DNA from: an uncultured Mageeibacillus sp.
Lineage (GTDB): Bacteria > Bacillota > Clostridia > Saccharofermentanales > DTU023
Direction of reading: 5' to 3'
Assembly (NCBI GenBank): GCA_964346695.1
Contig: CAYFVK010000005.1
Location: 7,155-39,154 of the forward strand
Length of the DNA: 32,000 nucleotides
Shown here: positions 5,760-28,248 of the stretch, piece after piece
How positions within the stretch are numbered: the stretch's first letter is position 1
How the letters are laid out: each line of letters starts with the position of its first letter
Program-made: the position numbers and the translations under genes
The notes under the pieces: model-generated
Told to the model about the DNA's origin: nothing
Databases searched by the model: none
Seen by the model: only the letters and a program-made list of their open reading frames with translations

Positions 5760-6404
5760 CTAAATAAATTGTAAAATATAGGGATTGTAATGAAAGGCAT
5801 CTTTAATTTTAAACGGAGAACCGTGTCCCGGCAACACCGGTAAATCCGCTGGCAGATCGCGCATTATTTTAATCAGTCGCCTCAGCGACTCCCACATCGC
5901 CTCAGAACTGCCGCCCTTTAAATCTGTACGGCCGATACTATCCGCGAACAAAACATCTCCCGAAATCAGGGCAATCGGCTTTGCTTCCGCGGTCTCACGG
6001 ACCAAGATAACTGAAGAACCGGGAGAATGCCCCGGCAAATGATAGGCTAAAAAGGATAATTCCCGATCCGCCAAAAATTTTTCCTGATCGGAAAAATAAT
6101 GTTCGGGCTCCGAAAAAACAGTCGGTCTGCCGAACATGATCGAGCAATTCGCCTCCGTGTCTTTGAGCAGAGGAAACTCCGCTTTCGGAATATAAAATTC
6201 CGCCTGTGCGCGTTTACGCCAAACATCGGACTGCTGTATATGATCATAATGGAAATGCGTGGCGATGACAGCCGCCAGGTTCTTCGCGATTTGCGCGTCA
6301 AAATCGATAGAAGGATCAATCAGATAATCCTTCTCTCCGTGCACGATATAACAATTGGCATGCGTCCAATTTTCAGGGATATAGCTAACTTTTTCCGATC
6401 GCAT
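5760..6404 (-). CDS. MBL-fold metallo-hydrolase, YcbL/GloC-like (glyoxalase II-type)
   Basis: THFHYDH (HxHxDH), PGHSPGS, SGDVLFADSIGRTDL, PGHG. The length (214 aa) and motif order match the YcbL/YqgX subgroup. The start overlaps the stop of the upstream gene (TAATG). Confidence 0.85.
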   Translation of the reverse strand: MRSEKVSYIPENWTHANCYIVHGEKDYLIDPSIDFDAQIAKNLAAVIATHFHYDHIQQSDVWRKRAQAEFYIPKAEFPLLKDTEANCSIMFGRPTVFSEPEHYFSDQEKFLADRELSFLAYHLPGHSPGSSVILVRETAEAKPIALISGDVLFADSIGRTDLKGGSSEAMWESLRRLIKIMRDLPADLPVLPGHGSPFKIKDAFHYNPYILQFI

Positions 6405-6793
6405 TATTTTATCAATTCACGCCAGTCAAGGTCACCGCGGTCAATTGCCAGAACCAGTACTTCCGCCGTAGCAATATTCGTAGCGTAGGGAATACTCTGT
6501 GTATCACAGGCTTTCATCAGCGAATTCGGAGCGTCGTATGAACGCAGCAACGGATCCCTTAGATAAATGACCGCATCGATTTCATTATAATTGGCTTTGG
6601 ACGCCAACTGTTCAACCGAAGCTGAAATATCCGTTGCCAAGGTCTCAACCTTTAAGTCCGTATTCTCGCGAATGGAACGCGAAAGATTAAACAATGAGAT
6701 CAGGTGATGCTTGGCAAGTATCTGTTTATATGCAATACAAAAATTAATCAATAAATCATATTTTCTCGGATCTGCAATTAATATGATATTCAT
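6404..6793 (-). CDS. Methylglyoxal synthase-like (MGS fold) protein lacking the catalytic residues
   Basis: Collinear with MgsA over its whole length (ILIA..., IDAVIYLRDPL, SIPYATNIATAEVLV). However AHD reads ADP, ATGTTG reads SLFNLS, GGDQQ reads SASVEQ and PHEPD reads SYDAPN. Strong AGGAGG SD. Confidence 0.8.
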   Translation of the reverse strand: MNIILIADPRKYDLLINFCIAYKQILAKHHLISLFNLSRSIRENTDLKVETLATDISASVEQLASKANYNEIDAVIYLRDPLLRSYDAPNSLMKACDTQSIPYATNIATAEVLVLAIDRGDLDWRELIK

Positions 6794-17607: not shown

Positions 17608-17636
17608 TTGTATCCCTTCTTAAACATTGATATAAT
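17608..17636 (+). promoter_or_regulatory. Candidate promoter of the Prs-like operon (extended -10)
   Basis: TTGTAT (17608-17613), 17-nt spacer ending in TG (17628-17629), TATAAT (17631-17636). GAGG SD before the ATG at 17672. Confidence 0.45.
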
Positions 17637-17660: not shown

Positions 17661-17671
17661 GTGAGGTACTT

Positions 17672-18922
17672 ATGGCGTCACAGCAAAATGAACCGACATC
17701 TACTACAGAGATGATCCTCCTTCGCAATTATGACGAAAGGATTCTTAAGCCAAACGCTCCAATTGCCATAATCAGCGATCAGCTTGATCCCGTATTATCG
17801 GATACCATTAATTTTTATCTGAATGAAAGACGTGCCAAAATTATCAGGGATTATCCCGAACAGGAGGATATTCCCGGTTATTTTCGGGAAGATTACCGCA
17901 TTCCGGTCAATTTAGGCCGCTACGCCTCAGGTGAAGGCATGGCCAGAATTCTGGAATCCGTGCGCGGACATGACCTTTTTATCATTACCGATGTTTTGAA
18001 TTACGGGCGCAGCTATACCCGCTTCAATCAAGAGGTTTCGCTGAGTCCCGATGAGCATTTCGAGGATTTATGCCGTCTGATAACCGCAGCTCACGGTGTC
18101 GCGAGGCGGATCAATGTGATCATGCCTTATCTTTATCAGGGACGCCGCTATCGCCGCGAATCCCGCGAATCACTGGACTGTTCCGTCATGCTGAAACGTC
18201 TGTTTTACTTGGGAATTAATCATTTTCTGACTTTTGACGCCCATGACGACCGTATTGCGAACGCAGTCCCCACCAAAAACTTCGAATCCGTGCAAACTTC
18301 TCTGCAGCTCATTGAAGCGCTTTTATCGACCTATCAGAACCTGACCATCGATAAAGATCATTTTATGATCACCAGCGCCGATGAAGCCTCTATCAAACGC
18401 TGCGTTTATTACGCTTCGGTTATGAAGGTACCCTTGGGCATTTTTTATCGACAATATGATCCCCGCCTGACCGGCAACGGTCAATATTCCGAAAGATATC
18501 TGAAACGCAACGCTAATAAGGCATTCCTCGGCGACAATGTGGCAGGCAAAGATATTCTGATCGTCGACGATATGATCGATACCGGCAAAACCGTTTTGGA
18601 ATGTGCCGCTAAATTAAAGGCAATGCAGGCAAAAAGAATTTTTGTCGCCGTTTCTTTCGCACAATTTTCCAAAGGTCTGGAAAAATTTCATCAGGCTTAT
18701 GCCGAAAATATAATTACCAAAATTTTTGCTACAAATCTTTCCTACCGCCCGCCGGAGCTTTTACAGGCGGAATGGTTTCATGATGTGGACGTGGCTGAAT
18801 ACTTGGCACTGTTAATTGACGGTTTTAATCATAATGCCAGTCTTTCAAGGCTGATTGATCCCAATAAGAAAATTAATGAATTAATCAATACGTATAAAAA
18901 TAAAGGAGACTGCAATGCCTAA
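17672..18922 (+). CDS. Ribose-phosphate pyrophosphokinase (PRPP synthase) family protein, long form, catalytic-loop KRR replaced
   Basis: Prs-fold motifs ASGEG..VRGHD, RRYRRESRESLD, FDAHDDR, TSADEAS, IVDDMIDTGKT. 416 aa versus about 315 for classical Prs. RQY sits at the position of the catalytic KRR. Confidence 0.8.
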   Translation: MASQQNEPTSTTEMILLRNYDERILKPNAPIAIISDQLDPVLSDTINFYLNERRAKIIRDYPEQEDIPGYFREDYRIPVNLGRYASGEGMARILESVRGHDLFIITDVLNYGRSYTRFNQEVSLSPDEHFEDLCRLITAAHGVARRINVIMPYLYQGRRYRRESRESLDCSVMLKRLFYLGINHFLTFDAHDDRIANAVPTKNFESVQTSLQLIEALLSTYQNLTIDKDHFMITSADEASIKRCVYYASVMKVPLGIFYRQYDPRLTGNGQYSERYLKRNANKAFLGDNVAGKDILIVDDMIDTGKTVLECAAKLKAMQAKRIFVAVSFAQFSKGLEKFHQAYAENIITKIFATNLSYRPPELLQAEWFHDVDVAEYLALLIDGFNHNASLSRLIDPNKKINELINTYKNKGDCNA

Positions 18923-20129
18923 CAATAAGATCATTTTTCGCGGGGACAAGGACTATTATCGCTATGATCAATACGGCGACAACCCGATGCCCGCCGATGC
19001 CCCGGTAGGAATTATTTCTTTGGTCGGCGCCAAAGAATTCGGTGCTGAAGTCAACCGCCATTTAGTCAAAAGGCGTCGTGAGTATTTGGATCTTTCGCAT
19101 GAAACCAGCTTGAGTCCGGGCTTTTTGCGTGATGATTATCAAATCAGCGCAGACGCCATCCGTTTTTCCTCGGGCGAAGGGAAAGGTGTGATCAATCAAA
19201 CCGTGCGCGGTCATGATCTGTATGTTATCTGTGATGTGACGAATTATAACTGCACCTATAAAATGCGCGGTATAATTAATCATTATTCTCCCGATGATCA
19301 TTATCAGGATCTGAAAAGAATTATTTTAGCTTCTATCGGGCAGGCACATCGAGTCAATGTGATTATGCCTTTTCTTTATGAGAGCAGACAGCATCGCCGC
19401 AGCGGCAGAGAATCCTTGGACTGCGCCTATATGCTGGAAGATATTTTCGATCTCGGAATCCGCAATTTTATCACCTTTGACGCGCATGACGACCGGGTCG
19501 CCAATGCTGTACCCACAGCGGGTTTTGAATCGATACCCTCCACCTATCAAATTCTGAAAGCCTTGATCAAAGCCGTACCGGATGTCAAGATCAATCCCGA
19601 ATCTCTGATGATCATCAGTCCTGACGAGGGCGCGATCAGCCGCTCCATGTACTACGCTTCCATGCTCAACGTACCTCTGGGAACTTTTTATAAAAGAAGA
19701 GATTATTCTCAGGTGATCGACGGCAGAAATCCCATCATCGCACATGAATTTTTAGGTGATTCGGTAAAAAATTATGATGTGTTAATTGTCGATGATATGC
19801 TTTCTTCCGGCGAATCCATGCTGGATTTGGCAAAGTCCTTAAAGCAGAAAGGCGCCAAACGCATTTTCTGTGCTACCACTTTCGCCCTCTTTACCGACGG
19901 AATCAAGGAATTCGATAATTATTATAAAAAAGGTCTGTTGGATAAAGTGATCGCTACAAATTTAACCTATTTGCCGGAGGAAGTCCTCAACGCCCCCTGG
20001 TTCGTGATGGCCGACATGACAAAGTTTGTTGCTTTATTGATCGATGCCATCAATCATAACGCGTCGATGGCGTCCTTGATCACACCGACCCATAAGATCA
20101 ATAAATTGCTCATGAAAATTTCCGGATAA
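18915..20129 (+). CDS. Ribose-phosphate pyrophosphokinase (PRPP synthase) family protein, long form, KRR loop retained
   Basis: SSGEG..VRGHD, RQHRRSGRESLD, FDAHDDR, SPDEGA, FYKRRD, IVDDMLSSGES. 404 aa. The ATG overlaps the upstream stop by 8 nt (ATGCCTAA). Confidence 0.8.
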   Translation: MPNNKIIFRGDKDYYRYDQYGDNPMPADAPVGIISLVGAKEFGAEVNRHLVKRRREYLDLSHETSLSPGFLRDDYQISADAIRFSSGEGKGVINQTVRGHDLYVICDVTNYNCTYKMRGIINHYSPDDHYQDLKRIILASIGQAHRVNVIMPFLYESRQHRRSGRESLDCAYMLEDIFDLGIRNFITFDAHDDRVANAVPTAGFESIPSTYQILKALIKAVPDVKINPESLMIISPDEGAISRSMYYASMLNVPLGTFYKRRDYSQVIDGRNPIIAHEFLGDSVKNYDVLIVDDMLSSGESMLDLAKSLKQKGAKRIFCATTFALFTDGIKEFDNYYKKGLLDKVIATNLTYLPEEVLNAPWFVMADMTKFVALLIDAINHNASMASLITPTHKINKLLMKISG

Positions 20130-20184: not shown

Positions 20185-20232
20185 GAAAAAATCCGGTTAA
20201 AGATTTGACTTGATCTTTAACCGGATTTTTAT
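20185..20232. terminator. Bidirectional rho-independent terminator between the Prs-like operon and nagB
   Basis: Perfect 15-bp stem AATCCGGTTAAAGAT / ATCTTTAACCGGATT with an 8-nt loop, flanked by A6 upstream and T5 downstream. Confidence 0.85.
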
Positions 20233-20979: not shown

Positions 20980-21306
20980 TCAATTCTCCGTTTCTTCATC
21001 AACTTCCTGATCTACATTTCTCTTTAATAGAAAAACTGTCCAGCCGGCTATCATACCGATAATAAATTCAATACCGGTAATCAAAGCAAATGTTTCCAAT
21101 TTATTTTGAGATAAGGCGATATTAAAAAAAATCAATAAGATCAGCAGCAGCAAACCGGCCAAAAACCGACCAAAGGCATTATAGCGAAAAAAAATCAACC
21201 AAGTATGGAAGGAACTGACTGACGAAGCGTTGTTCTCTCCTGAAACGGACTTGTTATCTGATTTTCGCTTTCCTTTTTGGGCTTTTGTCGTAGATTTCCC
21301 GCTCAT
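20980..21306 (-). CDS. Small membrane protein of unknown function (K/S-rich N-terminus, two TM helices, acidic tail)
   Basis: 108-aa ORF with a GAGG/AGGAG SD. Two clear hydrophobic helices. Its stop lies 2 nt before the nagB ATG. No recognisable family. Confidence 0.55.
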   Translation of the reverse strand: MSGKSTTKAQKGKRKSDNKSVSGENNASSVSSFHTWLIFFRYNAFGRFLAGLLLLILLIFFNIALSQNKLETFALITGIEFIIGMIAGWTVFLLKRNVDQEVDEETEN

Positions 21307-27645: not shown

Positions 27646-28248
27646 TTAATTGCTCTGTTCAGCAATTTTAGCGATAAACATTTCTAAAAATTCTTCTGAA
27701 TTGCTCCAGCCCGCACCATCATTTACATCTGAAAAATAAAAACCAGATATTTCATCTAAAGCTTTGCTGCATACCCACTCATAAATTCCTGAATTTTTAC
27801 TTTCATAGATAATCAGAAACAATGGTTTCATTGCTTTATTGCCCAGTGATACAACTTCCTTGTATTGCTTAGAATTTACTACATCATTGTACCACTGCCC
27901 GGTCAACCAATAGTTTTTATCTTCTTTTCCTTTTTCATCAATTTCTGTACATAAATCCTGCAATTGTTGAGCAATATCCGTGAGAGTTTTTTCATCTATG
28001 TTCTTTATCAGCAAATCTGCATCTACACCATTTTCATTCACTTCGTTCCAGACAATTTCTTCGCTATTTTCCGTATTTTCTTCACTACCTACAGAAACCT
28101 GACTTTCTGTTTCTTCGACGCTTACAGAAGTCTCATTTTCTGTTCTCTCATTTTTATTGTCAAAATCATTTCCATTATGGCAGCCTGAAAGAAATAAGAC
28201 AAAACAAACGGTTAAAGTTGAAAAAATAATGCACTTAACGCTTTTCAT
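27646..28248 (-). CDS. Lipoprotein of unknown function
   Basis: Signal peptide with lipobox LSGC, an acidic E/T/S/N-rich linker, then a globular C-terminal part of about 110 aa. GAGGAA SD. Visibly more AT-rich than its neighbours. Confidence 0.7.
   Translation of the reverse strand: MKSVKCIIFSTLTVCFVLFLSGCHNGNDFDNKNERTENETSVSVEETESQVSVGSEENTENSEEIVWNEVNENGVDADLLIKNIDEKTLTDIAQQLQDLCTEIDEKGKEDKNYWLTGQWYNDVVNSKQYKEVVSLGNKAMKPLFLIIYESKNSGIYEWVCSKALDEISGFYFSDVNDGAGWSNSEEFLEMFIAKIAEQSN

Follow-up and report, generated by a model that had tools for sequence, protein, structure and literature searches.

Adjacent genes for long PRPP-synthase-like proteins in Saccharofermentanales: a predicted catalytic subunit and its predicted non-catalytic partner

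Nucleotide, NAD, histidine, and tryptophan synthesis all depend on phosphoribosyl pyrophosphate (PRPP) synthase, known as Prs or PRPS, which makes this enzyme a chokepoint. In a 32,000-nt stretch of DNA from an uncultured Mageeibacillus sp. (contig CAYFVK010000005.1; hereafter, the window), two adjacent open reading frames (ORFs), P1 upstream and P2 downstream, encode Prs-like proteins, and the lysine and arginine of the catalytic flexible loop are found in P2 only. What, then, does the upstream protein do beside a seemingly complete enzyme? An earlier reading made from the sequence alone (the sequence-only reading) had suggested an obligate hetero-oligomer of one catalytic and one regulatory or pseudo-enzyme subunit. 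Our own answer, in which we place about even confidence, is that P2 is catalytic and that P1 is a non-catalytic partner that would co-assemble with P2, complete the P2 ATP site in trans, and modulate its activity. According to the current view, bacteria typically express a single PRPS, and multiple PRPS genes and pseudoenzymes are a eukaryotic hallmark (PMC12238573, PMC13252144).

The features on which the argument turns are listed here in window positions. Residue labels such as Lys194, Arg196, and H131 follow E. coli Prs numbering unless P1 or P2 is named.

17672..18922, plus strand: P1, long-Prs paralogue, predicted non-catalytic partner, 416 aa (ORF list, NF005299)
18915..20129, plus strand: P2, long Prs, predicted catalytic PRPP synthase subunit, 404 aa (ORF list, NF005299)
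18915..18922, plus strand: 8-nt overlap of P1 and P2, ATGCCTAA, holding the P2 start codon and the P1 stop codon
18449..18457, plus strand: P1 R260-Q261-Y262, at the catalytic K-R-R position in alignments with E. coli Prs
19692..19700, plus strand: P2 K260-R261-R262, catalytic Lys/Arg of the flexible loop, aligned to E. coli DKRR

Family, fold, and pairing of P1 and P2

The ORF coordinates bore out the lengths and the 8-nt overlap given by the sequence-only reading. BLASTP aligned P1 with P2 at 45% identity over 388 aa (E 7e-119), gap-free to about residue 260, in line with its by-eye estimate of roughly 40-50% identity without gaps through about residue 262. Pfam assigned Pribosyltran_N, Pribosyltran, and Pribosyl_synth domains to both proteins, with PF13793 and PF00156 above cutoff in each, and both belong to the superfamily described by TIGR01251 (ribP_PPkin; 144.4 bits for P1 and 143.9 bits for P2, cutoff 113). 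As the profile check proposed in that reading could now show, both also belong to the long Prs family NF005299 (PRK06827; cutoff 327 bits), with scores of 418.7 bits for P1 (residues 27-409) and 539.7 bits for P2 (residues 28-401). Scores against class I models fell far below their cutoffs, at 91.5 and 102.2 bits versus 297 for NF002320, 36-83 bits versus 296-536 for the class I equivalogs, and 63-102 bits versus 297-460 for class I NCBIfam models. A search of the window and about 1 Mb of related loci detected no class I prs.

AlphaFold2 (AF2) models were built from alignments of 139-140 sequences and reached a pLDDT of 89.4 and a pTM of 0.88 for P1, and 85.7 and 0.86 for P2. The top 50 Foldseek matches of the two models were all PRPS or PAP39 (TMt 0.83-0.90, E 1e-19 to 1e-23, identity 17-22%), with Prs as the best match at TMt 0.88-0.89 for P1 and 0.85-0.90 for P2. 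On the strength of these models and the Pfam domains, we confidently assign to both proteins the two-domain Prs fold of the type I phosphoribosyltransferase (PRTase)-like kind, as had been read from their motifs.

With class I Prs (E. coli, B. subtilis, human PRPS1), the two proteins share the two-domain PRTase fold, the FLAG Glu, the RQ motif, His131, Asp170, the DD ribose-binding pair, and the C-terminal S-x-S allosteric motif, while Lys194 and Arg196 are shared by P2 only. They differ from class I in being only about 20% identical to it and, as the sequence-only reading had noted, about 90-100 aa longer, the extra length being made up of an N-terminal arm, an insert after helix 1, a beta-hairpin insert (107-125), 8 additional residues in the catalytic loop, and a C-terminal helix. 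Three changes relative to class I run through the whole long family: D37 to S/T, D98 to H, and DTG.T to SSG.S. Non-class-I bacterial PRPS classes II and IV-XI have been proposed (Karki, Meller and Cunningham, bioRxiv 2026), and the long family is presumably one of these. Classes II and IV are defined by a TTMER or STMER RF loop that replaces Arg96; the corresponding residues are RQH in P2 and RRY in P1, and since Arg96 is retained, the long family is neither class II nor class IV.

We scanned one genome per GTDB species, which returned at least 600 family loci, and fetched the best 80. Of these, 42 were of Saccharofermentanales type (Saccharofermentans, Mageeibacillus, Fastidiosipila, and anaerobic-digester or rumen metagenome-assembled genomes (MAGs) labelled 'Clostridiaceae' and 'Clostridiales') and 38 were from Lachnospiraceae. 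Two adjacent, co-oriented family genes were present in 40/42 Saccharofermentanales-type loci; one of the remaining two was cut by a contig edge, and the other (L027) carried a catalytic-type gene alone. The degenerate gene was upstream, as in the window, in 34 loci, and the order was reversed in six (L040-L045). Every scored pair consisted of one member with the full catalytic signature described below and one without Lys194. At least 34 contigs appear common to the best-120 homologue lists of P1 and of P2, so co-occurrence extends well beyond the fetched loci. The best P2 match among the fetched GTDB-representative loci was 67% identical, with no species-level match among them, and the nearest genomes to the window were those of uncultured anaerobic-digester Saccharofermentanales.

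Each of the 38 Lachnospiraceae loci held a single gene of catalytic type, with no partner paralogue within 6 kb on either side. These single-copy NF005299 members (from Blautia, Mediterraneibacter, Lacrimispora, Enterocloster, and others) belong to the same family as P2 and carry the same signature at 51-56% identity. They also lie in a housekeeping context, without a partner and without the N-terminal DKxYYxYNQYGDNPM arm.

The motif of that arm, D-x-[NS]-Y-[YS]-x-Y-[DN]-Q-Y-G-[DN]-N-P-M, spans aa 12-25 of P2 (18948-18989), and all paired lineages (L004-L045) show strong conservation of it in their catalytic-type member. Among partners, only the least diverged have kept it, and it is absent from the single-copy Lachnospiraceae orthologues. 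The AF2 monomer gives the arm a pLDDT of 35-41, so its ordering may depend on oligomer formation.

Catalytic residues and divergence of the partner

P1 and P2 were aligned with E. coli Prs and 120 family members from related loci (MAFFT; HMMER for P2) and scored at E. coli positions F35, D37, E39, R96, Q97, D98, R99, H131, D170, K194, R195, R196, D220, D221, D224, T225, G226, and T228. In that order, the signature of P2 is F S E / R Q H R / H / D / K R R / D D / S S G S, with K260 and R262 of P2 in the places of Lys194 and Arg196, and FYKRRD recurs in 120/120 homologues. With either S or T accepted at position 37 and either K or R at 99, this signature was invariant in the catalytic-type member of every scored pair and in the 38 single-copy Lachnospiraceae orthologues. 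Most 50%-identity representatives of the wider family also have SSG.S, F[ST]E, and RQH, and Lys194 is kept in 61/73 of the full-length representatives. H191, D237, and the DD pair, corresponding to His131, Asp170, and Asp220-Asp221, are present in both P1 and P2.

The sequence-only reading had described degeneration as complementary, with P1 losing the catalytic loop and P2 the ribose-5-phosphate loop. The motifs on which it relied are all there: DDMIDTGKT in P1, DDMLSSGES in P2, and Ser in place of the Asp of FSDGE in both. However, SSGES is the invariant form of the family, and because DDMLSSGES and FSSGE, like RQH, are invariant in family members including single-copy orthologues, they do not represent degeneration, which is one-sided. 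Judged by alignment, P2 keeps every catalytic and substrate-binding residue that class I enzymes need. Two of these have been studied directly in classical enzymes. Human PRS1 has no detectable activity once either K194A or R196A is introduced, and the two residues are shared by the three classical classes (PMC4363470); in cryo-electron microscopy structures, Lys194 contacts the ATP beta-phosphate and Arg196 contacts ribose 5-phosphate (10.1101/2022.06.27.496812).

P1, with signature Y S E / R R Y R / H / D / R Q Y / D D / D T G T, has R260 in place of Lys194 and Y262 in place of Arg196, and its catalytic flexible loop is 6 residues longer than that of P2; alignment with E. coli Prs thus agreed with the earlier reading on both triplets and on the loop length. 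R96, H131, D170, D220, D221, and a fully canonical ribose-5-phosphate loop (DTGKT) are retained. The enlarged loop has its own conserved positions, with R260, Y262, D263, P264, R265, L266, Y272, K278, and K284 invariant in the 12/12 closest orthologues, and AF2 places two short helices in it (aa 260-285, window 18449-18526). In the model, the loop is remodelled, not disordered.

The asymmetry that had been noticed in one pair proved systematic, holding in 40/40 scored pairs. Lys194 was replaced in all 40 partners, usually by R, and by S, T, H, M, or L in sister lineages of the window, and some partner clades additionally lack H131, D170, or D220. In the catalytic type, 105 columns reach a conservation of 97% or more. 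Partners have lost 17 of them, clustered in the PP loop, the RQH motif, the catalytic-loop K-R and the remainder of that loop, and the ribose-5-phosphate loop. The catalytic loop is the most relaxed region of the partners, with an entropy of 2.09 bits compared to 0.41 bits in catalytic types. The FLAG-region core RFxsGEGK is equally conserved in partners and catalytic types, and the C-terminal allosteric motif is likewise conserved in partners. P1 has the features of a pseudoenzyme, namely a PRPS fold, disruptive catalytic substitutions (K194R, R196Y), and a remodelled flexible loop (+6 aa), and from these residue losses we infer that it is inactive.

On sequence grounds, P1 should not be filed as an active ribose-phosphate diphosphokinase. 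In public records, the P1-type protein P0008 is named 'ribose-phosphate diphosphokinase' and the P2-type protein P0124 'ribose-phosphate pyrophosphokinase', so that both are labelled as active enzymes. For the partner, this name is probably an over-annotation, and one that probably affects metabolic reconstructions of anaerobic-digester and rumen Clostridia.

The same residues can be read in another way, with P1 and P2 as two independent isozymes that are both active in separate homo-oligomers. P1 would then use Arg260, or a relocated Lys278 together with Arg265, and would differ from P2 in kinetics, nucleotide donor, or feedback control. The residues and canonical ribose-5-phosphate loop that P1 retains fit such an enzyme, as do its dN/dS (ratio of nonsynonymous to synonymous substitution rates) of 0.13, a mark of purifying selection, and the invariance of K278, R265, and K284 in 12/12 close orthologues; the invariant Lys278 and Arg265 of the window-clade loop could in principle replace the lost Lys194 and Arg196. 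Many partner clades keep Arg196 (as RKR, RDR, or RER), and going by their sequences, some of these partners might retain activity. Lys194 to Arg is also a conservative change, for which we found no K194R data in the literature. Set against this are the variety of residues that replaced Lys194 across partners, the further loss of H131, D170, or D220 in other clades, which indicates relaxed catalytic constraint, the high variability of the partner catalytic loop, and the lack of detectable activity of human PRS1 with K194A or R196A. Isozymes would also not need the strict adjacency seen in 40/42 loci. We consider two independent isozymes unlikely.

The two members of the pair have evolved at different rates. 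Catalytic-type orthologues were more similar to each other than partner orthologues in 780/780 locus comparisons, with mean identities of 67.3% and 46.7%, respectively, and dN/dS between two close relatives was 0.13 for P1 compared to 0.064 for P2. P1 thus evolves faster than P2, yet under purifying selection, and is not decaying. The faster evolution of the P1 type and its loss of key catalytic residues are what a decaying duplicate, a pseudogene in progress without function, would show. This reading was rejected and is highly improbable, given that more than 40 divergent genomes carry an intact P1 ORF, that the dN/dS is low, and that the AF2 model of P1 is confident (pLDDT 89.4); in addition, 30 columns are invariant in a P1-led alignment of 120 P1-type and 20 P2-type rows, and the P1 start context and Shine-Dalgarno sequence are conserved.

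In a neighbour-joining (NJ) tree, the partner clades mirrored the clades of their catalytic-type neighbours, from which it follows that the pairs co-diverged. With 60 bootstraps and an E. coli root, partners without that of L045 were monophyletic in 20% of replicates, and the L045 partner grouped with the catalytic cluster in 63%. The position of the L045 partner near the catalytic clade suggests at least one younger duplication event. One old duplication and several are not separated by these bootstraps, and long-branch effects from the distant E. coli root are likely. The reversed gene order in L040-L045, considered together with the position of the L045 partner, hints at more than one duplication or rearrangement.

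Partner loss was traced in L027, from an uncultured Oscillospiraceae MAG (CAZJXH010000072.1, 4478-6366). There, the EngB-like gene directly abuts the catalytic-type gene, no partner paralogue is found within 5-6 kb on either side, and the nearest relatives carry the pair. Given the abutting EngB-like gene, the partner has been lost cleanly at least once.

Proposed model: a catalytic subunit with a partner in trans

We propose that catalysis in this 'long', non-class-I PRPP synthase (NF005299/PRK06827) falls to P2, and that P1 is a paralogue in which the catalytic Lys and Arg have become Arg and Tyr and the catalytic flexible loop has been rebuilt. P1 retains the Prs fold as well as the ribose-5-phosphate loop and the C-terminal allosteric motif; it also retains the FLAG core, whose E39-equivalent Glu would line the ATP pocket of its neighbour. 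Co-transcribed, and translationally coupled in the lineage of the window, the two proteins would be made in about equal amounts and form mixed P1-P2 dimers or hexamers, with turnover at P2 sites only. P1 itself would be structural or regulatory; it might, for instance, provide a half-site that senses a ligand, or gate an alternating loop cycle like that of class I enzymes, and it could modulate P2 via its ribose-5-phosphate pocket, its C-terminal allosteric motif, or its rebuilt loop beside the P2 catalytic loop.

The proposal draws on two properties of known enzymes. The ATP pocket spans the dimer, combining the FLAG region (Glu) of one subunit with the RF-loop arginine of the adjacent subunit (PMC13252144), and the catalytic loops of neighbouring class I protomers move in anti-correlation, opening and closing alternately (10.1101/2022.06.27.496812). 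Because the pocket spans two subunits, a FLAG core that is kept while the protein's own loop is relaxed, as seen in partners, is the pattern predicted by a mixed dimer. Overlapping unidirectional gene pairs frequently code for subunits of heteromeric complexes (PMC10666635).

Extending the proposal to the whole order Saccharofermentanales is more tentative. PRPP synthase would there be hetero-oligomeric, with one operon supplying both the catalytic subunit and a pseudo-subunit that lacks the Lys. Such a PRPS-pseudoenzyme complex would be the first in prokaryotes and separate in origin from eukaryotic PRPSAP/Prs1, with the FLAG region acting in trans and the loop or ribose-5-phosphate pocket gating a 'reload' cycle. 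We rate this generalization as possible, at somewhat below an even chance.

Several points weigh against the proposal. We found no solved structure in the NF005299 family by PDB-side comparison and no biochemical study of any NF005299 member in the literature, and the PRPP synthase activity of P2 is predicted from homology. Genomic linkage is what points to a putative physical association of P1 with P2, and the regulatory role of P1 is likewise a prediction. The survey of tandems proposed by the sequence-only reading upheld adjacency, in the 40/42 related loci, and confined overlap and coupling to the clade of the window: overlaps (-8 to -14 nt) are limited to a few lineages, and most orthologous pairs are separated by 8-96 nt, with a strong Shine-Dalgarno sequence of their own. 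With most pairs spaced and few overlapping, co-transcription is the conserved feature, and overlap is lineage-specific. Partner loss in L027 and the single-copy Lachnospiraceae orthologues mean that the partner is not universally required, so 'obligate' was too strong a word for the complex.

P1 might instead have acquired a new function outside the Prs oligomer, with ribose 5-phosphate, PRPP, or a nucleotide as its ligand. It could then serve as a sensor or regulator, transfer a phosphoribosyl or diphosphoryl group to another acceptor, or channel PRPP made by P2. The ribose-5-phosphate loop and PRTase core of P1 would suit such a role, its loop is clade-specific yet conserved, and it matches the PRTase families HGPRTase and UPRTase, below threshold, via the common PRPP loop. 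However, P1 fits NF005299 end to end (residues 27-409), and two features that it conserves, the C-terminal allosteric motif and the FLAG region, are relevant only in a Prs oligomer. Partner loops vary between clades, contrary to one common new chemistry, and the conserved neighbourhood is housekeeping synteny without other pathway genes. A new function of this kind appears improbable to us.

The functionally nearest system to a co-assembling P1 and P2 may, by analogy, be the eukaryotic complex of PRPS with PRPSAP1/2 (PAP39/41) or of yeast Prs1/Prs5. In each, a PRPS-fold duplicate without catalytic-loop function and with a loop insertion is kept beside an active copy, and P1 matched PAP39 (2c4k) at TMt 0.85 in Foldseek. 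The likeness drawn by the sequence-only reading was apt in another respect, as catalytic-loop insertions also mark the eukaryotic PRPSAP-like paralogues, which arose convergently several times (PMC12238573). The systems differ in origin: P1 is 45% identical to P2, about 19% to PAP39, and 18-22% to class I PRPS/PAP39, and it groups inside the bacterial long family, not with the PRPSAP/Prs1 group. The P1 insertion is also small (6 aa versus tens of residues), and the P1 and P2 genes are operon-linked. The pair is probably a bacterial, operon-encoded analogue of PRPS with a pseudo-PRPS, and the partner is probably regulatory.

The remark in the sequence-only reading that the arrangement is not characterised in bacteria held up, as we found no bacterial precedent in the literature and nothing specific on PRK06827 or on bacterial Prs heteromers or pseudoenzymes. 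The published PRPS pseudoenzyme screen was restricted to eukaryotes (PMC13252144), and the main text of Karki et al. makes no mention of bacterial pseudoenzymes or operonic pairs. If the proposal is right, an architecture of enzyme plus inactive paralogue arose convergently in prokaryotes, and the two genes would offer a simple system, easy to express, in which to study how PRPS assembly, allostery, and the alternating loop cycle are tuned by an inactive paralogue.

Expression signals and genomic neighbourhood

The sequence elements around the pair are as follows.

17608..17636, plus strand: putative promoter, -35 TTGTAT (17608-17613), 17-nt spacer, extended -10 TGaTATAAT (17628-17636), read by eye
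17661..17667, plus strand: P1 Shine-Dalgarno sequence GTGAGGT, 5 nt 5' of the ATG, from sequence reading
18902..18907, plus strand: P2 Shine-Dalgarno sequence AAGGAG, within the P1 3' end, 7 nt 5' of the P2 ATG
20187..20230, no strand assigned: bidirectional intrinsic terminator, perfect 19-bp stem, 6-nt loop, A-run upstream, U-run downstream

The putative promoter sits in a 70-bp divergent intergenic region common to P1 and the EngB-like gene. One promoter for both genes of the pair had been claimed; the extended -10 supports it, and a consensus promoter scan made no call at 17608..17636, its silence being due to a weak -35 that fits 3/6 positions only. A riboswitch or T-box in the P1 leader was rejected, since an Rfam scan of the leader (about 30 nt) gave no matches. 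In the three closest loci (L084, L086, and L087), P2 is 82-84% identical, the synteny is the same, and the genes overlap by 14 nt; L084 and L086 also place the P2 Shine-Dalgarno sequence within the P1 3' end, as in the window.

Downstream, the strong terminator that had been noted was confirmed by RNA folding, with a free energy of -27.8 kcal/mol and a z-score of -7.95, and 0/200 shuffles were equally stable. Because the hairpin is symmetric (A6 upstream, U5 downstream) and lies between convergent genes, it was read as bidirectional; as judged from its sequence, it probably terminates both the P2 unit and the convergent nagB-like gene. The hairpin also gave a sub-threshold Rfam match to the SpF36 small RNA (27 bits versus a gathering score of 48), which we take to reflect the terminator hairpin alone.

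The pair lies in conserved synteny, with PBP2-MreD-MreC-RadC-AsnS-SecC-HolA-ComEC-EngB upstream (divergent) and NagB, a small membrane protein, RqcH, QueH, and RuvBAC downstream (convergent). A mobile-element or defence-island context was rejected on account of this conserved housekeeping synteny, and no specialised-pathway genes were found in the conserved neighbourhood. The single genes of Lachnospiraceae have other housekeeping neighbours, namely those for a DUF512 radical SAM protein, Der, PlsY, MurC, and PgeF.

The window as a whole (1-32000) is core chromosomal housekeeping DNA encoding TyrS, PheST, PBP2, MreCD, RadC, AsnS, HolA, ComEC, and EngB, together with NagB, RqcH, QueH, RuvABC, GlgA, and a GlgC/D-like gene. 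Two minus-strand ORFs, 6404-6793 and 27646-28248, had no match in the Pfam scan. A third minus-strand ORF, 20980-21306 (108 aa), overlaps the nagB-like gene by 4 nt. In 17 tandem loci, an ORF of about 111 aa, similar in size to 20980-21306 and with no recorded Pfam match, lies just 3' of the pair.

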